The position numbers were made by a program, and so were the translations under genes. A stretch of 44,115 nucleotides of DNA from a virus (lineage: Duplodnaviria > Caudoviricetes), in IMG/VR virus record IMGVR_UViG_3300027813_001276, positions 1-44,115 of that record. The stretch is one strand, 5' to 3'. Shown piece by piece: positions 3,324-44,115 of the stretch. The stretch's first letter is position 1, and each line of letters starts with the position of its first letter. The notes under the pieces are model-generated. The model ran no database searches. It was given only the letters and a program-made list of their open reading frames with translations, and had not been told where the DNA came from.

Positions 3324-3882
3324 TACGATCCTCTTTTAATTTTTTTATGTAGTCTTGATATATCTTAATATAATGCACTTGACCATCTGCTACAGTTGTT
3401 TTCCAATCATCCTTTGCATTTTCGTCTGCACTATCACTGATGTATTTAAAACATTTAAAGTTTACAAATGATTGTTTACATGCTTTTGCTATTGCATAGG
3501 CTTCCATGTCAACAACGTCTGCTATTAATTGTTCGTTTGTGTAGTCACTTACAAAATTATCTCCTGTACTGCAACACATATCTGCTATATCACCATTCAG
3601 TAAAACTACGCCATCTTCAAATGGTGTTTGCCCAGTTTCAAATCCTAATTCAGTACACATTATATCACGTTGTACAAAGTTTTTAATTTCATGTATGCCA
3701 TTTGATACACTTACACCACCTGCTGTACCAAAGTTAAATACAGTTTCTGGATCATAACGTTCTATTAGTTTGCCGGCAGTAATACCTGCATTTACTTTTC
3801 CAACGCCTGTAAAAAATACATTAACCCAACTAGCCATTCTTGGTGCTTCTTCTTCTAATGCAATTAAAATGATATCACGCAT
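3307..3882 (-). CDS. mtnN: MTA/SAH nucleosidase-like protein (PNP_UDP_1 family)
   Basis: TGVGKVNA, NFGTAG, TGDNF, VDMEAYAIA, KYISDSAD motifs. Confidence 0.85.
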   Translation of the reverse strand: MRDIILIALEEEAPRMASWVNVFFTGVGKVNAGITAGKLIERYDPETVFNFGTAGGVSVSNGIHEIKNFVQRDIMCTELGFETGQTPFEDGVVLLNGDIADMCCSTGDNFVSDYTNEQLIADVVDMEAYAIAKACKQSFVNFKCFKYISDSADENAKDDWKTTVADGQVHYIKIYQDYIKKLKEDRNEQAN

Positions 3883-7124: not shown

Positions 7125-7154
7125 ATTATACTACCATTTCCTATTGATTGTCAA
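7125..7154 (-). promoter_or_regulatory. Sigma70-type promoter for uvsW, embedded in the 3' end of the receptor gene
   Basis: TTGACA-18nt-TATAAT; -10 box ends 5 nt before the ATG. Confidence 0.65.
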
Positions 7155-8795
7155 CTGAAATTCTCTACCTTGACTAGAATAGCCTGGCAGGACCTCTACT
7201 TCTTCGTCTAACACGTTCTTGACATTAAGTGATAGTTGTACCATGTCATTGAATGTCTTAGTGTAGCCGAAGTTTAATTTTTCTAAGTCTTCTAACTCTG
7301 CACCGTCATATGGTCCAGGCTTTCTATCGTATGTACCTGTGTAAGAAGCATTAACATTATGTGTACCAAAGTCTTGGTCATAACTTAATACTGCAACATA
7401 CTTAGGTACTCGTGCTTGTATGGTGTCTGTTGCTTTAAGCATTATACCAAAGTTGCCAAACGTCTGTGCATACCTAATACCTTTTGTGCTGTATGCACCT
7501 GTATTATAATACTTTGCATTAGTCCAAGTAGAAGTCGGTTCTTCGCCTTCAGCAATTATGTCTGGAGTTGAAAAGCCTGACATGTACTCAATGGATTCTT
7601 CAAAGTCGTATACAAATATACTTAATACCCCAAATCCTAGTTCATAGCCTACTGCTTCTTCTGGACCCAAGTCTAGATTAGCATCTACATAACTATCGCC
7701 ATATAGTTCATATAAGTTAGGTCGTCTGTAACTTGTACCAACGTTAAAAAATAATGGTCCTTTTTCTACACCAAATCTCATAGCATCTTGACCTTCGTTA
7801 CCTCGTCTAAAACCAAAGTTATAGTTTAAGGCAAACTCGGCATTAATGTTTAAGTAAGCACCATAGTTATCTCTCTTATGTTGATTATACTTTTCTTGAC
7901 TAGCATCAACACCATAAGAAACTTGAAGTTTCTGCGATAGGTTTGTTTGGTCGCCAAGTCTCATATAGTCTGTACTACTTTCATTTTCGTAAGACATGTA
8001 ATCGGCTGTGAAGTAATCTGACTGCTGATACGTTCTTCCTAATGTTAAGTACTCGTTATTAATTGCAACATTATACTTCTCGCCTTCTTGTACACAATCA
8101 TTGGACTGTGAAAAGTCTGCTGTATAGCAGTTGTCGTATTCATATGAAAAGTCTGTGAGCTTTGCTGTAATAGTAAAGTCCTGAACATCCACATTAAGTT
8201 TAACATTCTTATTTGAGTACTCATCTTTTTCTGTGTTATCGTTTCTTACTTGATTGTTCACACCTAATTCTGTGTACTGTATCCATGTTGTTGGTGCTAA
8301 GTTTAAATACCTATATCCGTTATTACCTGCTCCGGCTGTAATTCCTTTGTTAATAGTATCTTTAATAAGTACTGTTCCAGCAATACTGCCTGAACCATAT
8401 ACAACACTATTTGCACCAGTGATTATTTTAACAGTCTCACCTGTTATAATATCTGCACCAAAGTTATACCATGCTGACCCGGGCTCATTTGCTGGTATAC
8501 CATTTCGGTAAACTGATGTATGTATTGTTTGAGCACCACGCTCGTTGTAACCTTGGAATGCTCCATAGCCGCCGGCGGTCCATGTGTGCATGGGTGCTAT
8601 TGCTTCTATTAGGTTGCTGTCTTGTAGTGGGTCTGTTTGTTTTACTTTTATTTGTTGTGCCACTACCACAACTTCCTCTATCTCTTCTGCTTGAGTTTTA
8701 AACGATATTGCCATCAATACCATAACTACAAAGACAAGATATAAAGGACTTAAATTGATGTGGAAATTCCAGTCAATTTTTTTACTCACTTTCAT
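7131..8795 (-). CDS. TonB-dependent outer-membrane receptor (short, BtuB-like architecture)
   Basis: Signal peptide ending TQA-E, TonB box EEVVVVA, plug motifs (RG...VYRNGIP; IITGANSVVYGSGSIAGTV), barrel motifs SYRRPNLYELY and LNVKNVLDEE, aromatic C-terminus. Confidence 0.88.
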   Translation of the reverse strand: MKVSKKIDWNFHINLSPLYLVFVVMVLMAISFKTQAEEIEEVVVVAQQIKVKQTDPLQDSNLIEAIAPMHTWTAGGYGAFQGYNERGAQTIHTSVYRNGIPANEPGSAWYNFGADIITGETVKIITGANSVVYGSGSIAGTVLIKDTINKGITAGAGNNGYRYLNLAPTTWIQYTELGVNNQVRNDNTEKDEYSNKNVKLNVDVQDFTITAKLTDFSYEYDNCYTADFSQSNDCVQEGEKYNVAINNEYLTLGRTYQQSDYFTADYMSYENESSTDYMRLGDQTNLSQKLQVSYGVDASQEKYNQHKRDNYGAYLNINAEFALNYNFGFRRGNEGQDAMRFGVEKGPLFFNVGTSYRRPNLYELYGDSYVDANLDLGPEEAVGYELGFGVLSIFVYDFEESIEYMSGFSTPDIIAEGEEPTSTWTNAKYYNTGAYSTKGIRYAQTFGNFGIMLKATDTIQARVPKYVAVLSYDQDFGTHNVNASYTGTYDRKPGPYDGAELEDLEKLNFGYTKTFNDMVQLSLNVKNVLDEEVEVLPGYSSQGREFQLTINRKW

Positions 8796-8824: not shown

Positions 8825-8852
8825 ATTATACGTCTTTACAGGCAAAAGTCAA
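8825..8852 (-). promoter_or_regulatory. Sigma70-type promoter for the TonB-dependent receptor
   Basis: TTGACT-16nt-TATAAT, followed by GGAG SD. Confidence 0.65.
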
Positions 8853-8871: not shown

Positions 8872-8908
8872 TATAAAAGGTGAAGCCCCGGAGTAACTCC
8901 GAGGCTTC
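8872..8908 (-). terminator. Intrinsic terminator after the AAA gene
   Basis: GAAGCCTCGGAG-tta-CTCCGGGGCTTC 12-bp stem (one G-U pair valid only on the minus strand), then ACCTTTTAT. Confidence 0.75.
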
Positions 8909-8909
8909 G

Positions 8910-8960
8910 TGGTGCTCTACTTGGGGGATGACTAACGTTGAGCACCAGGGAAACGTTAGC
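8910..8960 (-). ncRNA. Putative H-type pseudoknot RNA in the AAA gene 3' UTR
   Basis: S1 GCTAACGTT/AACGTTAGT (9 bp) and S2 TGGTGCTC/GAGCACCA (8 bp) are interleaved; loop CATCCCCCAAGTA. Confidence 0.6.
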
Positions 8961-8973
8961 AATATTAATTATC

Positions 8974-10014
8974 CTATATAGTACCTTTCATACAAGTAGT
9001 CCTGGCGAGCTTCTCCCAATTAGCAGGATCCATTTTTCTAAGATCCGCAATCTTCAAAACCATTCTCAAACTTATCTCTCTAAGTACTTCCTGGTTGCCA
9101 GTCATAAAGTCGATAACTTCTCTGTCACCTTCTTTACCAAACTTGTATTCATCAAGCATACCGTCTTCAACGATTTGGTTGATTCTAAGGAACTTGTCTC
9201 TCATGGAGCTCATTGTAAGATCCAAGTAGTGACATCTTGACATCAATGCCGCCAAGTGATCCTTAATCTTCTTAGAACGAACGTTCTCAAAATCAACGTT
9301 AGTAATAAAGATACAACCACCTTTAAACTCAAACCTATCTGGAATTCCTTCTCTTCGAAGTGCTTGGGACTCTGACTTCCAAGTAATAGTTCTCTTCTTA
9401 CCTGAGTCCAAAGTAGCCTTCAACATGTTCAGACATACTTCATCAAATAATACACTATCACAATCATCAAATACTAATATGTTACCCGCCGCACTATTAT
9501 TATATAGTGTCTGGAATAAACCAATTGGAGTAACTGAACCTTTAACAACTTCAGTTCTTGCAGGCTTGCCAGCAACTTCTGTTAGCATGTCATAATCTTC
9601 TAAAACAGTTTCAACACCAAATGACTTACCAACTCCTGGAGGGCCACTTACTATCATACCACGTACCGTACCTTCTGCTACAGCATGAGTCATACGATCC
9701 AAAATATCAAAACGTTCTCTGATACGCTCAATTGCTTGAACATCAGTTTCTGCTTTTTCCTTCTTTGGAGTATTATCTATTTTAGGCTGTTCAGCATAAA
9801 CACTTGGAGTAACATACTCTAAGTCTTGTGTAGGATCTTCTATTAAAATCCTAATGCTTGAAAACTTCTCACCCATTGCTTCACTACCATCAACGGTAAT
9901 AAATGCACCTTTCTTGCCAATGTTAAGTGGCTTTAAGATTGGAAATACTGTATCAACGATTTCGTTTTTACGGTAAGTACCAGTCTTGATCTTTACATAA
10001 TTCTGCTTTGTCAT
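8974..10014 (-). CDS. AAA+/P-loop ATPase
   Basis: Walker A GPPGVGKS, Walker B ILVFDDCD, sensor FITN, arginine finger ALMSR. Confidence 0.88.
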   Translation of the reverse strand: MTKQNYVKIKTGTYRKNEIVDTVFPILKPLNIGKKGAFITVDGSEAMGEKFSSIRILIEDPTQDLEYVTPSVYAEQPKIDNTPKKEKAETDVQAIERIRERFDILDRMTHAVAEGTVRGMIVSGPPGVGKSFGVETVLEDYDMLTEVAGKPARTEVVKGSVTPIGLFQTLYNNSAAGNILVFDDCDSVLFDEVCLNMLKATLDSGKKRTITWKSESQALRREGIPDRFEFKGGCIFITNVDFENVRSKKIKDHLAALMSRCHYLDLTMSSMRDKFLRINQIVEDGMLDEYKFGKEGDREVIDFMTGNQEVLREISLRMVLKIADLRKMDPANWEKLARTTCMKGTI

Positions 10015-10072
10015 ATTGTCATCCCCGACTAAATGATTATTGTTAATAAGCCCTTCTTACTAACTTGTATAT

Positions 10073-10101
10073 ATTATACTAAATTTCTGGACCAATGTCA
10101 A
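10073..10101 (-). promoter_or_regulatory. Perfect-consensus sigma70 (early) promoter
   Basis: TTGACA-17nt-TATAAT with A-rich upstream element. Confidence 0.85.
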
Positions 10102-10158: not shown

Positions 10159-10187
10159 ATTATACCGGATTTCCTGGCAGAAGTCAA
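10159..10187 (-). promoter_or_regulatory. Second tandem sigma70 promoter
   Basis: TTGACT-17nt-TATAAT with A-tracts upstream. Confidence 0.8.
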
Positions 10188-10755: not shown

Positions 10756-10935
10756 TTATGTGTCCTTGTGCTGTGAATGTAAACTTTCAAATACTGCGAA
10801 TCCTTCATCCCTACTGTAGGTTTCTTCGTTATACAAACGTCTTTCTGAACAGTTCAATGAATACCATTCTGCAAAGTTAGACTCATAAGTAAAATCTGTA
10901 TTGTATGTAAATACCGTTGATGTATTAACGTTCAT
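10756..10935 (-). CDS. Small hypothetical protein (59 aa)
   Basis: Manual translation MNVNTSTVFTYNTDFTYESNFAEWYSLNCSERRLYNEE...; AGGGG SD; abuts the next ATG. Confidence 0.7.
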   Translation of the reverse strand: MNVNTSTVFTYNTDFTYESNFAEWYSLNCSERRLYNEETYSRDEGFAVFESLHSQHKDT

Positions 10936-19672: not shown

Positions 19673-20722
19673 TTACAAGTACTTTGTAATGTTATATGGT
19701 ATAGATACATAGGGTAAGTCTACTACTTGACGTATCTGATTGAGAAACTCTGGTCTTAAAGGATGATCCAATTGGTCAACTACGTCTTCTTCTGCAAAAT
19801 TATCAAATGTTCCCCAATCGTCCATTCTACTTATAGTACATTGTGCATCATAACGTGCTGTTAGTTTAACAAAATTAACAACATCATGTGCATTTGCTTT
19901 TTGACACACAAATCTAAAGTGTACATCAGCGCCTTCTGGCTTGTTCTCATGCATCCAGTCTAAATTTTCTATAAGTTTTTCAAAGTTACCCGGTCTTCTT
20001 ACTACTTCGTATACTTCTTTACTGCCTGCATCTATACTAATTTTAAATTCGCTTATATTAGGAAGTATTTTACTATCTGGTAATTGCTTACTCATTAATA
20101 ATCCGTTTGTGAACAATGTAAGAGTGTGATTATGATTAGGAATCCAGTCTGTAACAAACGGTCTCATTATGTTACTTGCTAAAGGATCGCCATTTCCAGT
20201 TAATGTAATGTGTGTACGTTCTTTAAATCTGCGTAATAGACTAATTGTATGCTTGGCATACTCTACTTGCTGTTGATAAGTGTCGCCTTCTGTGTGTAAT
20301 ATCATTTCTGGTCTACAACTTGGACATGCAAGGTTACAACTTTCATCTACATTAACATATATACTATAAAATTCTTGTCCTTTGTTGTTTATGTGATGTA
20401 AATCATGTTCCATTATTCTGCAATGCTCTACAGCACACCATGTAAACTTTTTATCTTCTACATCTTTTTGTAATTCTTTTGCTAGTGGATTTGACCATAC
20501 ATCTTCTAATTCATAACAGTCCAATATATTACATATAACAAATGGCAAATATAATTCACAGTTATCAATGAAGCATTCGCCCTTTGTTGTGATATTTAAA
20601 CTACGATGTGGTATTGTACAACTGTTAGTAATAGTGTGTTTAAGTTCATTGTTACGTTTTGCCATTGGCATTAGTCCTCTTGTTGGACTTTGTAACAATT
20701 TATAGTCTATCAGTGTCGACAT
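19673..20722 (-). CDS. Radical SAM protein with Cys-rich N-terminal (SPASM/twitch-like) segment
   Basis: CNLACPSC (CxxxCxxC), TGNGDP, FTNG, ISIDA...YEVVR. Confidence 0.9.
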   Translation of the reverse strand: MSTLIDYKLLQSPTRGLMPMAKRNNELKHTITNSCTIPHRSLNITTKGECFIDNCELYLPFVICNILDCYELEDVWSNPLAKELQKDVEDKKFTWCAVEHCRIMEHDLHHINNKGQEFYSIYVNVDESCNLACPSCRPEMILHTEGDTYQQQVEYAKHTISLLRRFKERTHITLTGNGDPLASNIMRPFVTDWIPNHNHTLTLFTNGLLMSKQLPDSKILPNISEFKISIDAGSKEVYEVVRRPGNFEKLIENLDWMHENKPEGADVHFRFVCQKANAHDVVNFVKLTARYDAQCTISRMDDWGTFDNFAEEDVVDQLDHPLRPEFLNQIRQVVDLPYVSIPYNITKYL

Positions 20723-33988: not shown

Positions 33989-35779
33989 TTATAGTGAGTT
34001 GCGGTATTCTTGAACAGTTAGTATAGTAGGCACATCATCTTTCCATAATGTTACAGACTCTACTCTATTGTGTTCCTTGATATTCATTACTTTATCATAA
34101 TATGCCATATGGTCATTGTACATATCTTGCCTTAACAAGTTACTGCCCAATATTGGATTCCTAGTAGGATGTATTTTCTTCCTAAGGAATGCCTTATGGG
34201 TAACCTGTGCAAGATGAAATGCTTTCATCAATGTTACTCCATGTTTGTTTGTATATATAACCATGTCTTCTTGACCAGGGCCAAATATTCCGGATCTTTG
34301 TAGGGTTCTGTATTCTTCTTTAGACTTTTCTGTGTACCCATAAGCGGCTGGATCTGCCTGTATGGCACTTTCAGTTTTTGTACCATCCATTTTTTCACCT
34401 TTACCTATGGACCTACGAAGTTTATATATAACAGGATAGATAGCATCCAGTTTATTATAATCTAAATCTGTTAATTTATTGTATGAATCTCTTAAACCTT
34501 CATAAGTATCTTCTGGTAACCCAAACATAAAGTTTGAGCTCATGCCAACATCTTTAAATGCGCCTGCTTTTAGTTCTCTAATAAATGCAAACTGCTCCTC
34601 AGGATCCCATCCTTTGCCTAATGCAATACCACTTTCGTGTATTGTTGATTCTATTCCGTAATGTAACCAACCAGCGCCGGCGTCTACTAATAATTGAGTT
34701 TGTTTTAATCTATGTTGTAAGTCTAATCTTGCAAAAGCGGACCATTTTAAAGGAATTCCTGTACGACTTTTTATTTCTGCTAGTCTTTCTAACTTTGAAC
34801 TATCGTCATTTATAGTATCATCTGATACCCAGTACTCTGATACCCCAAACTCTTCCCAATTACGTTTCAGTTCGTCTTCTACCCTTGATGTACTACGCAT
34901 ATAGGAGCCTTTCTCCTTACCTATCAAGTTAAATTCACAAAATGTGCATTTGAATATACAGCCTCTGCCAATTTCTAAAGATATCTGTTGGTTTGGTAAA
35001 AGTATGTCTTCTGGAAAATAATGTTGTGTAGAATTTTCTATATCTAGCATACTTTTAGCGTCAGTGTATACTTTTTTGAGAGTGTTTGCTTCTAAATCCA
35101 TCATCATGTGTCTAATTGTAACGTCTGCATAACCAAACATGAACACATCTATGTCATGTAGGGGAGAATCTACTTGTCCGTTACCTTTTAATTCTTCTGT
35201 AGCATTAAATTGTATTCCACCTATAACAAGTTTTATGTCTGGATTAATTTCTGTAGCCCATTCTTTTAATTTATGATGTCTTGATGGAGGGAAATACACA
35301 CTATTCATTAATCCTCGTTGTGTGGCGCCAAAGGCGAACACTTGTCCAAACATTACTGCTTTAGTATTAGGTCCTACAAACTTTTTAATAACGTTGTGTA
35401 TTAAATCTTCGCTGGAGTGCAATGGAAAATGTATTACTTGTACTGTATACCCCATTTGTCTAAGTTCATGTGCAACCCTATCTGCTCCCATTGACCTAGA
35501 ATTATGATCGCTACTCATAGGCCACTCTATCCAGCCATGAAACGGGTCTGTTTTTGCTCTTACTGGATCATAGTTTTGGTTTCTAGTATAACAACGCTTT
35601 TCGAAGTCGTCTGCAGTTTGTAAATAGTCTGCATACTCTTCATCTGTCCATTGTTTTTGATAGTTCATCGATTCTAACTGTACTTCATACTGTCTAGCTA
35701 CCGTTGGGTCACTCGCAAACATCAGTATATCTACTTCTGTGTGAATAAAATCTTTATCGTATGTAAGTATGTGCTTCAT
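33989..35779 (-). CDS. Radical SAM protein, B12-binding (class B-like) architecture
   Basis: N-terminal Rossmann-like region (VAHELRQMGYTVQV, LVIGG, GYAD); EIGRGCIFKCTFC; DDT; GIES; FGLPEDT. Confidence 0.88.
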   Translation of the reverse strand: MKHILTYDKDFIHTEVDILMFASDPTVARQYEVQLESMNYQKQWTDEEYADYLQTADDFEKRCYTRNQNYDPVRAKTDPFHGWIEWPMSSDHNSRSMGADRVAHELRQMGYTVQVIHFPLHSSEDLIHNVIKKFVGPNTKAVMFGQVFAFGATQRGLMNSVYFPPSRHHKLKEWATEINPDIKLVIGGIQFNATEELKGNGQVDSPLHDIDVFMFGYADVTIRHMMMDLEANTLKKVYTDAKSMLDIENSTQHYFPEDILLPNQQISLEIGRGCIFKCTFCEFNLIGKEKGSYMRSTSRVEDELKRNWEEFGVSEYWVSDDTINDDSSKLERLAEIKSRTGIPLKWSAFARLDLQHRLKQTQLLVDAGAGWLHYGIESTIHESGIALGKGWDPEEQFAFIRELKAGAFKDVGMSSNFMFGLPEDTYEGLRDSYNKLTDLDYNKLDAIYPVIYKLRRSIGKGEKMDGTKTESAIQADPAAYGYTEKSKEEYRTLQRSGIFGPGQEDMVIYTNKHGVTLMKAFHLAQVTHKAFLRKKIHPTRNPILGSNLLRQDMYNDHMAYYDKVMNIKEHNRVESVTLWKDDVPTILTVQEYRNSL

Positions 35780-37545
35780 ATAGGTTTGAACTCTGTGACT
35801 TCACCGTTATTTACCCATTGTACAGAATTATACCGTGTATGTTGTTGAACTGACATAATTTTTGACCAATACTCTTGCCAATAATTTTTCATAAAGTCTG
35901 TTTTTTCTGCATCTAGTGGTATCTTGTGATACGTTGCTGTAAGTTTTGGCATCCAGCCTCTACTTTTATGGAAGTCTTCATTTAACTTTTTAACAAACCG
36001 TTCTGCACCAGTGTAAGTTATGCCATGTTTGTTACGCCAGTACCTAACAACTGCTCCACTAGTAGCCTGTTGTATTCTGTTTGCTTCTTCAATGGGAAAG
36101 TCATACCCATAGTCTTCTGGATTTCTGTCTATCTTACTGCCTGTTTGTTGAAAGTTTTCATCGCCCGATGTCGTAACTTGATGAGATGATAAATCTCTTA
36201 TAAACATATAGTTTACCATTAAGTAATCTAACGGATTAAATTTAGGATCTAGTATTTGTTCTCTGAATAAATTTAAAGACTCTCTGGTGTCTTCTGGTAA
36301 TCCAACTACAAATGAACTAAACAGTTGTACTTTGTCTTTGAATATACCGTTCTTTAATTCCCATAAGTATTCAAATTGCTCTAATGGGTTCCAACCTTTA
36401 CCTATTAATGGACCATTGAGAGGATTAAGACTTTCTATGCCATAGTGTGGATTAAATAATCCGCAATCCAGTAGTAATTGTTCTTGTTTTAATCTATGTT
36501 GTAAGTCTAATCTAATAAACGCACTAAGCTCTAATGGTATGTTAGCATTATGTTTTGCTTCTGCTACAAGTTTAAGTTTATCACTATCCTCATTAAAGGT
36601 ATCGTCCATTACCCAATACTTGTAAATGCCATTCTCTTCCCAATTACGTTTCAGTTCGTCTTGTATAAGACTTTGTTTTCTAATATATGTACCTTTCTCT
36701 TTTCCTAGTAATCCAAAGTTACAAAAACTGCAACTAAAAATACAACCACGTGAAGTTTCTAAAGGCATTTCATCTCCTTTAACAATTCCATCTTCTTCAC
36801 AGTAACTCATTGTACTGTTTAATATATCTAGTCGACTGCCTCTATCTGTATAAACGGGCCACTCGGTGCCTGCTTTAATATCATCTAGCATTTCAAAAAT
36901 TGTTGCTTCTGCATAACCAACGTTGATAATATCCATATCAAGCATAGCACTATCGAATCTTTTATCTAATAATGTTTCTAATGTGTGAGGACTACCTCCA
37001 GATACTAATTTAGTATTAGGATTAATATCTTTAATCCAGTTTTTAATTTGACGTTGACGTTGTGGTGGCATGTAAAGAGAATGAAACAATGCCCATGGGT
37101 TATATGCACTATGGAATGTTTGACTAAAGCCTACTAAAAATGTATTATCACCTATAAACTTTTTAAATATTTTTTTAAAGTCTTCTTCTGTGTGATACCA
37201 AAAGTGTGTTACAACTTGTACTGTATAGCCTTTCTTTCTTATTTCATGTGCAAGTTTATACATAGCATAACTTCTTGCAGTATGATGTGCAGAACAATAG
37301 TCATTATTTTCTACATAATTGCAAACTCTTTCTGATTCTGGTGATGTTTTATCTACATGTTCTAAATACTTTGCATATTCTTCATCAGTAAATTGTTTCA
37401 TACCTTGGTCGTCTGCTAACTTTAAACCAAAGTCATACACACTTGCACCTGGTATCATGTGTTCATAATACCAAATAGCAGTTAAGTCATCTGCAAATAG
37501 CAGTACATCTACCGGAGTTTTTTCAGGATTAAAGTTTTCTAGCAT
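35776..37545 (-). CDS. Radical SAM protein, B12-binding (class B-like) architecture
   Basis: LAHEIRKKGYTVQV, VSGG, GYAE; ETSRGCIFSCSFC; DDTFN; GIES; VGLPEDT. Confidence 0.88.
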   Translation of the reverse strand: MLENFNPEKTPVDVLLFADDLTAIWYYEHMIPGASVYDFGLKLADDQGMKQFTDEEYAKYLEHVDKTSPESERVCNYVENNDYCSAHHTARSYAMYKLAHEIRKKGYTVQVVTHFWYHTEEDFKKIFKKFIGDNTFLVGFSQTFHSAYNPWALFHSLYMPPQRQRQIKNWIKDINPNTKLVSGGSPHTLETLLDKRFDSAMLDMDIINVGYAEATIFEMLDDIKAGTEWPVYTDRGSRLDILNSTMSYCEEDGIVKGDEMPLETSRGCIFSCSFCNFGLLGKEKGTYIRKQSLIQDELKRNWEENGIYKYWVMDDTFNEDSDKLKLVAEAKHNANIPLELSAFIRLDLQHRLKQEQLLLDCGLFNPHYGIESLNPLNGPLIGKGWNPLEQFEYLWELKNGIFKDKVQLFSSFVVGLPEDTRESLNLFREQILDPKFNPLDYLMVNYMFIRDLSSHQVTTSGDENFQQTGSKIDRNPEDYGYDFPIEEANRIQQATSGAVVRYWRNKHGITYTGAERFVKKLNEDFHKSRGWMPKLTATYHKIPLDAEKTDFMKNYWQEYWSKIMSVQQHTRYNSVQWVNNGEVTEFKPI

Positions 37546-38566: not shown

Positions 38567-38642
38567 TGGTGGAGCTGATAGGGTTCGAACCTACGACATC
38601 CACGTTGCAAACGTGGCGCTCTCCCAACTGAGCTACAGCCCC
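38567..38642 (-). tRNA. tRNA-Ala(TGC)
   Basis: GGGGCTGTAGCTCAGTTGGGAGAGCGCCACGTTTGCAACGTGGATGTCGTAGGTTCGAACCCTATCAGCTCCACCA: 76-nt cloverleaf, G3-U70 pair, encoded CCA. Confidence 0.97.
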
Positions 38643-42656: not shown

Positions 42657-44115
42657 TTATTTGTAAAGTTTTCTTACTTCACCATTAATTATCGGAGCAT
42701 AAATTTTAACAGGCTCCTCTTTACCTTTAACAGTAACTTCGCCCAATTTAGAACATGGAATGTTTGTAGTCTGCTGATATGTGTACTCACTTATTAAAAT
42801 AGGAGTATCTTGCTTCCTAGTTTCTGCTTCTAGTCTTGCACCTAAGTTTACAGCATCGCCTACAACACTATAATCTAATCTAGTTTCAGCACCCATGTTA
42901 CCCACAATACATGTGCCTGTGTTTACACCAGTACCAAATTTAACTCTAGGCAAGCCACGTTCTTCCATTTCTGCTTCTAGTTCATCGCCAAGTAGTTCAA
43001 TTTCTATTGCTGTTTTAACTGCCATCTCGGCATGATTATCACAAGGTAGTGGAGCATTCCAGAATGCCATTACACAGTCTCCCATGAACTTATCTATCGT
43101 TCCACCGTTGGCTAATACTATATTTGTCATCTTATCCAGGAAGGTATTGATAAGTTCCACTAATCCCTCAGGGTCATCGTTCTTCATATACTGTTCTGAT
43201 ATAGGAGTAAAGCCGACTATGTCAGCAAATAAGAAACTCATTTCTTTTCTTTCACCGCCCAACTTCATTAAACTAGGATCTTTAACTAGCATATCTACAT
43301 ACTCTGGACTTATGTATGTACCGAATTGTGCTTTTATTTGTTGTCTCAACTTGTATTGTTTGTAAAAATTGTTAAATGTTGCTTGGGTAAACACTAAAAA
43401 TGTTGCAAGTAGTGGGAATGTTGCATCAAATAATAGCAGTTTTGACTGGTACATTAGTACACTAAACCATCCCAATCCACCCATGATACTAAGGGAAATT
43501 GGTATAGTTAACCATATAGGTGTTCTATACACACAGAAAGCAATAAGAATCATACCCAGTAACGCACATAGAAGCTCATACACGGTACTAAGTTGGCTAC
43601 GCTGTATATTTGTACCATTAATTATATTCTGTAGCATATGAGCATGTATTTGCTGTGAATACAAGTTGCCACGTGGGGTTGGAACAGGATTAGCAATGCC
43701 TTCTGCTGTTACACCTATTATAACATATTTGCTACCTAGGTCAGGCAAACTATCTGCATTTGTGTATTCAACTTCTTGAAAGGTGTTGTTGAACCTAATA
43801 TATGCTGTTCCATCCGGTTGTGTTACAACTGGGTCATAAGGTGGAACAGCAATTTCGCTAACACCTATTTCAGATGTTTTAATTATATAACTTGGTTTAC
43901 CTGAATTAACTCTTAATAGCTCAATAGCAAAACTAGGATATAATTTTCCTTCAACGCCTATTGTTAGTGGGTAAGTTCTTGTTTGATTGTCTGGTTGTGG
44001 TGCTGAAGCATTAACTCCAATACCAAACGCCATAGTCTCTAGTTGGCTTATGTTCGTTACTAGGTTGGGCCATGTTAGTACAAAGTCCTGTGCGGGTAAA
44101 GGGCCTATCGTTCCT
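42657..44115 (-). CDS. Class III adenylate cyclase with CHASE2-like sensor and transmembrane helices (5' end outside window)
   Basis: Frame stays open to the window edge; hydrophobic helices; FADIVGFT, DKFMGDCVMAFW, GNMG, DYSVVGDAVNLGARLE. Confidence 0.92.
   Translation of the reverse strand, partial: GTIGPLPAQDFVLTWPNLVTNISQLETMAFGIGVNASAPQPDNQTRTYPLTIGVEGKLYPSFAIELLRVNSGKPSYIIKTSEIGVSEIAVPPYDPVVTQPDGTAYIRFNNTFQEVEYTNADSLPDLGSKYVIIGVTAEGIANPVPTPRGNLYSQQIHAHMLQNIINGTNIQRSQLSTVYELLCALLGMILIAFCVYRTPIWLTIPISLSIMGGLGWFSVLMYQSKLLLFDATFPLLATFLVFTQATFNNFYKQYKLRQQIKAQFGTYISPEYVDMLVKDPSLMKLGGERKEMSFLFADIVGFTPISEQYMKNDDPEGLVELINTFLDKMTNIVLANGGTIDKFMGDCVMAFWNAPLPCDNHAEMAVKTAIEIELLGDELEAEMEERGLPRVKFGTGVNTGTCIVGNMGAETRLDYSVVGDAVNLGARLEAETRKQDTPILISEYTYQQTTNIPCSKLGEVTVKGKEEPVKIYAPIINGEVRKLYK

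Follow-up and report, generated by a model that had tools for sequence, protein, structure and literature searches.

Functional long-range pairing has been documented in very few natural bacterial mRNAs, and native genes avoid anti-Shine-Dalgarno (anti-SD) sequences, as stated in the available text of a study of Bacillus subtilis reporters by Gill et al. (PMC12697547). In those reporters, RBS (ribosome-binding site) complements of 8 to 12 nt that lie hundreds of nucleotides downstream cut translation and half-life by direct pairing, and the distal effect fades with distance (44% at >500 nt); the word 'phage' is absent from the main text of that article. In icaR of Staphylococcus aureus, a C-rich 3′-UTR motif base-pairs to the SD region of its own mRNA, with blocked initiation and decay by RNase III (PMC3868564, available text). 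In hok of plasmid R1, the partner of fbi is tac, and the SD is masked indirectly via ucb (PMC9841398), and in hbs of B. subtilis the 5′ and 3′ UTRs pair over 14 bp (PMC5737220), as described in the accessible parts of these two articles. An earlier note on the DNA of a phage AAA+ ATPase gene had proposed that a 3′ element of this gene targets its own RBS, and among homologs the stems are kept and the loop and the RBS change together.

The ATPase gene and its transcription unit

The window, that is, the whole stretch of DNA analyzed here (44,115 nt), is a 44-kb virus record from an uncultured marine giant phage. It holds T4-like genes for UvsX, UvsY, a helicase, a terminase and the sheath, and a 340-kb relative (G001, 91% complete) carries the same tail element. 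Several radical SAM genes (19673-20722, 33989-37545), a gene combining CHASE2 with a guanylate/adenylate cyclase (42657-44033) and a tRNA (38570-38642) are also present. The layout on the minus strand is promoter, ATPase gene, tail element and terminator, with the following features.

10159..10187, minus strand: promoter-like site of the sigma-70 type, farther upstream, 11/12 (consensus match only)
10073..10101, minus strand: promoter-like site of the sigma-70 type, TTGACA-17-TATAAT, a perfect 12/12 (consensus match); here the ATPase transcript is predicted to begin
10042..10064, minus strand: predicted hairpin in the 5′ leader, 9 bp, loop AAGGG (z -4.0 for the 64-nt leader)
10011..10036, minus strand: predicted weak RBS hairpin, in which a 4-nt loop presents the G-run of the SD and the start codon is paired
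10018..10026, minus strand: target GGGGAUGAC over the SD, 3 nt ahead of the ATG
8974..10014, minus strand: gene for a 346-aa AAA+ ATPase, T4 NrdC.10 family, phrog_1250 (profile match; Walker A GPPGVGKS, Walker B VFDD)
8976-8974, minus strand: stop codon TAG of the ATPase gene
8910..8960, minus strand: predicted H-type pseudoknot (stem pairing and alignment of relatives)
8924..8932, minus strand: anti-RBS GUCAUCCCC, the last 2 nt of S1b and the first 7 nt of L3
8872..8908, minus strand: intrinsic-terminator-like hairpin of 12 bp (stem 8908-8882) with a U-rich tail (predicted fold)
8825..8852, minus strand: promoter-like site of the next gene, for a TonB-dependent receptor (consensus match)

From the 12/12 and 11/12 promoter-like sites upstream, and the terminator and new promoter-like site downstream, we infer that the ATPase transcript is a single-gene, early message of ~1.2 kb; the position of the next gene's promoter-like site behind the terminator suggests that the unit ends there. 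A promoter-like motif lies at most 100 nt upstream of the ATPase gene in 62 of 75 family representatives. One contig from an RNA library spans the end of the coding sequence and runs into the tail element (8899-9146), and Logan contigs from 8 of 24 listed RNA runs cover parts of the gene, although such contigs carry no strand, end or short-RNA information and do not reveal transcript ends. The phage-encoded TonB-dependent receptor itself occupies 7131-8795 (Plug domain, E 1e-8), its own promoter-like site standing directly behind the ATPase terminator.

The contrast drawn earlier between the SD of the ATPase gene and an (A)GGAG consensus at most other genes was overstated, since GGAG stands at about a quarter of 44 listed starts (counted by eye); a GGGG-type SD also precedes the ORF at 10756-10935. 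An AUG within the target site opens an out-of-frame mini-ORF of three codons (10011-10022) whose stop overlaps the ATPase start; the clade as a whole does not keep this frame.

The ATPase matches the phrog_1250 profile over its full length (residues 6-343, E 8e-83), is 30-41% identical to NrdC.10 members from cultured phages, and keeps the Walker residues GPPGVGKS and VFDD invariant across 22 sequences. Its structural match is NrdC.10 of Aeromonas phage 25 (E 1e-22); an Atlas search returned AAA clusters only and a PDB sequence search gave nothing under E 0.08. Modeling of the whole protein gave a poor structure (pTM 0.42) that resembles generic AAA+ folds, while the N-terminal 74 residues are modeled confidently (pLDDT 90) as a domain that resembles SH3/KOW barrels only weakly (best Z 4.8). 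The available text of PMC1524935 gives an AAA match alone for nrdC.10, and we found no published function for NrdC.10 in the literature. NrdC.10 is a widespread T4-family protein, and its dose probably matters.

The predicted 3′ pseudoknot and its conservation

A pseudoknot and terminator had been described on the minus strand 13 nt past the stop, and all of their stems, loops and coordinates were reproduced. S1 pairs 8960-8952 with 8939-8931 (9 bp, including one G-U), L1 is UCCC (8951-8948), S2 pairs 8947-8940 with 8917-8910 (8 bp), and L3 is a loop of 13 nt (8930-8918); the spacer from stop to pseudoknot measures 13 nt and the terminator stem begins 1 nt past the pseudoknot. Calculated separately in ViennaRNA, which excludes pseudoknots, the stem energies are -7.5 kcal/mol for S1 and -11.4 kcal/mol for S2, and a favorable fold is calculated for the structured 3′ end (z -4.5). 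A pseudoknot for readthrough or frameshifting was considered and rejected, as there is an in-frame TAA two codons past the TAG and the spacer shows no slippery heptamer.

The element was aligned over 29 distinct sequences (28 of 32 relatives after removal of duplicates, plus the window) from loci with 75-100% protein identity. Pairing is found in 96.6% of stem cells (S1 99%, S2 94%), against 23-49% in slid controls, and two-sided changes occur at three stem pairs. The 9-bp and 8-bp stems claimed for the element hold in the window; the relatives conserve an in-register S1 core of 7 bp, most of them having the two inner U-A pairs displaced or broken up, and form the outer S2 pair in just 16/29 sequences. 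Variation in the S1 core comprises one swap from G-C to A-U (six sequences) and three wobble changes, and the two swapped pairs of S2 both come from a single sequence. The 13-mer GUUAGUCAUCCCC, which spans S1b and L3 and contains the anti-RBS, is invariant in 29/29. Stem conservation lends the pseudoknot moderate support, because the shuffle control is uncorrected for relatedness.

In line with the earlier note, which did not recognize the element as a known RNA family, Rfam offers no counterpart: an Rfam 15 scan of the window placed only the tRNA above the gathering threshold and gave no match for the element, and six relative loci searched at E up to 1 gave no significant hit. A covariance model run over 43 sources found one copy in the window and one in G001, with weak matches in loci L065 (E 1e-5), L075 (E 9e-5) and L264 (E 0.37), and a DNA pattern scan returned 58 viral loci, mostly contigs already known via the ATPase protein. 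The element is not mentioned in the available text of PMC7824862, PMC7318152, PMC10690425 or 10.64898/2026.10.24.761521, and it may be an unannotated candidate in the viral structured-RNA catalogue of PMC10690425.

Covariation between the 3′ tail and the gene's own RBS

The exact 9-mer complementarity to the gene's own SD was confirmed: GUCAUCCCC (8932-8924) is the complement of GGGGAUGAC (10026-10018), ~1.1 kb away in the same gene, and both are single-copy in the window. A helix of at least 9 bp with the ATPase RBS is found in 2 of 474 non-overlapping minus-strand windows of 93 nt, the real site probably among them, and the ATPase gene is the only one of 49 window genes with a helix of at least 8 bp between its own 5′ and 3′ ends. 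Within the 1195-nt transcript the helix has an ensemble pair probability of 0.51-0.65 and is absent from the single best fold; modeling of the cofold, with the pseudoknot left out of account, puts the net gain at just about -4 kcal/mol.

In the gene family, 378 loci with an ATPase hit gave 360 usable flanks, 176 of them distinct, and an independent metagenome set of 80 loci gave 67 usable flanks, 55 of them new. The measure was the longest Watson-Crick helix between positions -22 to +10 of the start and the stop to +90, and own 5′/3′ pairs were compared with foreign ones by permutation, a test not fully corrected for relatedness. A helix of at least 8 bp is present in 121/231 distinct loci. 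After clustering of the proteins at 90%, 70% and 60%, it is present in 46/112, 13/30 and 7/13 clusters, with permuted means of 8.4, 1.9 and 1.0, respectively; the metagenome set gave 12/23 at 80% clustering (3.6 expected) and 5/14 at 70% (1.1 expected, 36 of 20,000 permutations being as high). For all data together, 29/75 representatives have the helix between their own RBS and own tail, against 5.2 expected and a permuted maximum of 15 in 20,000. With the counts of windows and genes given above, these figures bear out the earlier judgment that chance is unlikely. The helix is absent in the other 46/75 representatives, T-even-type phages included.

The paired letters are specific to lineages, and GGGGAUGAC, UGUGGGAGG, AGUGAGGUA, UAGGAGGUU, GGAGAUGAGU, CGAGGGCA, GAGUGAGA and GGAGAGAG are each mirrored in their own tails; 26 positive representatives show 20 different helix sequences. 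Helices are centered at -12 to -5 relative to the start. Controls gave 16/650 positives for windows of the own coding sequence and 3/66 for same-sense matches, and none of 30 other terminator genes of G001 has a helix of its own. On a quick tree, the supported clade that holds the window counts 16 members, 15 of them positive; at least three other clades also include positives. A DNA-level inverted repeat, such as a recombination or protein-binding site, or a chance match, appears scarcely credible at all as the source of this pattern. Chance is excluded by the permutation results; the absence of G-U enrichment at helix ends, where G-U does not exceed A-C (14 vs 19), favors a repeat, but the letters vary by lineage yet always cover the RBS, the 3′ copy lies in predicted RNA loops ahead of a terminator, and the S1 variants include G-U/A-U swaps on the coding strand.

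With the 4-nt SD core as the only anchor, the bases on either side of it form Watson-Crick pairs in 30/43 (-1) and 31/43 (+4) cases, against foreign-tail rates of 0.29 and 0.21 for the same flanks, and all four pair types are seen. Covariation with the own RBS that extends beyond the SD core in this way is a sequence-level argument that excludes a generic anti-SD sequence. A tail acting as a generic anti-SD decoy, or as a regulon sRNA on many phage or host mRNAs with an incidental match to its own gene, is thus highly improbable. The invariance of the 13-mer within the clade would suit such a role, as would the csgF-like gene that ranks first among 429 RBS regions of G001, where the own gene reaches only 7 bp. 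However, the flanks covary with the own RBS and not with foreign ones, the remaining genes of the window pair with the element over at most 6 bp, and only 1/37 distinct csgF starts shows the csgF match, which homologs 75-81% identical no longer have. Given that single start, csgF was rejected as a conserved trans target of the G001 tail; a csgF search in two further clade contigs found none, and no second conserved target of the tail was found. In G001 the csgF-like gene lies with a csgG-like curli secretion gene, followed by a possible curlin-like protein (L393:117-2303). G-U matches to terminator U-tails made up the bulk of a count of second anti-SD sites (26/29), which hence is uninformative.

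The anti-RBS goes with a terminator, being found in 27/47 representatives that have one and in 2/28 that lack one (Fisher p 8e-6, not tree-corrected), and in 26/27 cases it lies upstream of the terminator stem. Its mean unpaired probability is 0.72, against 0.43 in the surrounding 90 nt (26 loci). An exposed anti-RBS ahead of a terminator is the family-wide feature, and the pseudoknot is the display scaffold of one clade, with hairpins or bare tails elsewhere. The earlier identification of the pseudoknot as the element thus stands for the window's clade and does not extend to the family. The sister clade keeps a C-run and an S2-like stem; the best predicted fold of its one folded example (L466) consists of a hairpin, the C-run, a hairpin with the anti-RBS in its loop, and a terminator, and in other lineages the anti-RBS directly follows the stop. 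The C-run just 5′ of S2 (8948-8951 in the window) is kept in pseudoknot and hairpin clades (L462, L466, L264, L255) and may offer a further anti-SD site or take part in base triples.

Within the window's clade (33 distinct loci) the tail is fixed and the register of its target shifts: 19/33 pair at the SD (9-12 bp), 12/33 pair at the start codon (9-10 bp) with use of the S1b strand, and 2/33 reach 5-7 bp only. The start-codon register is incompatible with S1, which suggests that the loop may serve as a toehold and that S1 would be displaced on binding. The RBS-hairpin fold is predicted in 17/18 long-leader loci (-4.3 to -6.7 kcal/mol), with a variant in L027, and an SD presented in a weak hairpin loop is predicted to suit a loop-loop contact with the tail in this subgroup. 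The 5′-leader hairpin is found in 18 long-leader loci with varying stems; its loop AAGGG, similar to the SD region in relatives with short leaders, may be the relic of an older SD. Pairing of this loop with L1 of the pseudoknot would also be possible, though no covariation was seen by eye. One locus (L476) joins an RBS of the L249 type to a tail of the L255 type with 5 bp only, an apparent recombinant and a natural case of mismatch.

Fourteen cultured phages were compared at the RBS window or leader. The helix covering the RBS is absent from the T-even-type members (T2, Moon, Acj9, KVP40, avDM3 and Klebsiella 15882-6-4), the last of which has a 10-nt A-rich match in the leader. The Pseudomonas phage Paride (L081:2480-2495, 3658-3700) has an RBS match of 8 Watson-Crick bp (12 with G-U), buried in the 3′ arm of a hairpin behind the gene, Kaldavass has 8 bp that lie inside the next gene, and the remaining phages examined have at most 7 bp. 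The Xanthomonas phages BUDD (L531:300-1450, ON758385) and X1 (L536, OQ427096) carry a perfect 14-bp 5′-3′ complement at -40, in a leader loop and off the SD, together with a second 3′ hairpin bearing shorter leader complements; this type of complement is absent in DLP_6.

Another possible role of end-to-end pairing is to shield or store the mRNA in the manner of hbs, or to silence it until 3′ trimming activates it, in the manner of hok, in place of a permanent shut-off. The complement of BUDD and X1, placed off the SD, is in keeping with this, and in hbs the 5′-3′ pairing blocks cleavage by RNase Y according to the accessible text of PMC5737220. We nevertheless regard protection or storage as decidedly unlikely, given that the helix of the main family covers the SD or start codon, that the distal leader (-60 to -23) has no excess of pairing (4/75 vs 3.7), that SD occlusion shortened the half-life of the reporters (PMC12697547, available text), and that BUDD and X1, 92% identical, share an unchanged 14-bp motif and so yield no covariation information.

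Proposed action and comparison with described systems

The pairing of tail and RBS is itself strongly supported by the covariation. We consider it probable, at roughly two in three, that the 3′ tail pairs back on its own RBS, which would block ribosome loading and cap ATPase output per mRNA; repression, timing and action in cis are what icaR and the reporters with distal anti-SD sequences lead us to infer, and the pairing would probably also speed decay of the mRNA. A strong host-type promoter would drive early transcription, and ribosomes would load before the 3′ end exists. After termination, the C-rich loop could nucleate on the G-run of the SD, itself in a small predicted hairpin loop, and the helix would then grow into S1b and open S1, with the S2 hairpin and terminator remaining as a stable 3′ clamp. 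As pairing would set in only once the message is complete, ATPase would come from each mRNA in a burst of limited size. What speaks against this account is the missing helix in the single best fold, the small cofold gain, the loss of the reporter effect with distance, the family members that lack the helix, the clade members and L476 with short matches, and the G-U count at helix ends.

Two copies of the mRNA could pair in this way as well, and we speculated that a stable 3′ fragment of ~90 nt, or free mRNA tails, could pair in trans with the RBS of new ATPase mRNAs and exert a dose-dependent negative feedback. Such a fragment would have a target specificity identical to that of cis pairing; the compact structured 3′ end (z -4.5) fits it, the separation of 1.1 kb weakens pairing in cis, and the authors of the icaR study could not exclude intermolecular pairing (PMC3868564, available text). 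We judge action in trans rather unlikely, as no dedicated minus-strand promoter-like site lies ahead of the element, many relatives show the anti-RBS straight after the stop without a protective 5′ structure, and an ectopic icaR 3′ UTR gave no repression in trans in the available text of the same article. A scheme that we would call unlikely is a family-wide phage timer with lineage-specific keys, in which the tail, as soon as it is made, would lock the early ATPase mRNA and end its translation; in the window's clade the RBS would open a metastable pseudoknot by strand invasion, and the SH3/KOW-like barrel of the ATPase would bind or remodel the pseudoknot and so set its own dose.

The proposed pairing in cis between the tail and its own RBS has parallels in each of the systems named at the outset. 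The proposed analogy with hok fbi/tac holds for a 3′-to-5′ fold-back over a long range, by which the full-length hok mRNA is kept silent (PMC9841398, accessible text); but icaR is the closer analogue, since in hok it is tac that fbi binds, and the SD is concealed just through ucb. As that text also describes, hok is a short toxin mRNA that is activated by 3′ trimming and needs the Sok antisense. Unlike hok, the phage helix lies right on the SD or start codon, and pairing in the distal leader is not in excess; unlike hok/sok-like type I toxin-antitoxin systems, the product is a 346-aa AAA+ ATPase and not a small membrane toxin. As possible promoters of a cis-encoded antisense RNA, the opposite strand near the 5′ end has only weak 9/12 promoter-like sites, at chance level. 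The pairing in hbs shields an RNase Y site and leaves the SD uncovered (PMC5737220, accessible text), whereas here the helix lies on the SD or start codon. With T4 NrdC.10 the ATPase shares protein homology, unlike the T-even-type members examined in having the RBS-covering helix. The sequences of Gill et al. are synthetic insertions of a kind that native genes avoid (PMC12697547, available text), whereas those of the phage family have apparently been kept by selection.

Our searches of the literature, with most subscription papers outside their coverage, found no phage example of such pairing between a 3′ tail and its own RBS. As in icaR, the SD finds its complement in a 3′-UTR motif of the same message, and cis versus trans was left open for icaR; icaR is a chromosomal repressor gene with a long 3′ UTR and a complementary region of ~40 nt, experimentally shown (PMC3868564, available text). 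Here, by contrast, a phage gene has a 3′ UTR of ~100 nt and a helix of 9-12 bp, shorter than the ~40-nt RNase III-substrate region of icaR, with covariation as the sole evidence, and the motif is displayed in a pseudoknot or hairpin loop. One phage gene family has kept a pairing over ~1 kb while both partners were rewritten together many times, which offers evolutionary evidence that RBS occlusion over a kilobase range would be under selection in nature, and its matched and mismatched pairs of RBS and tail are natural material for the question of cis versus trans left by icaR. The principle is already known from icaR, with hbs and hok as related cases, and its occurrence in a phage gene family appears to be new.
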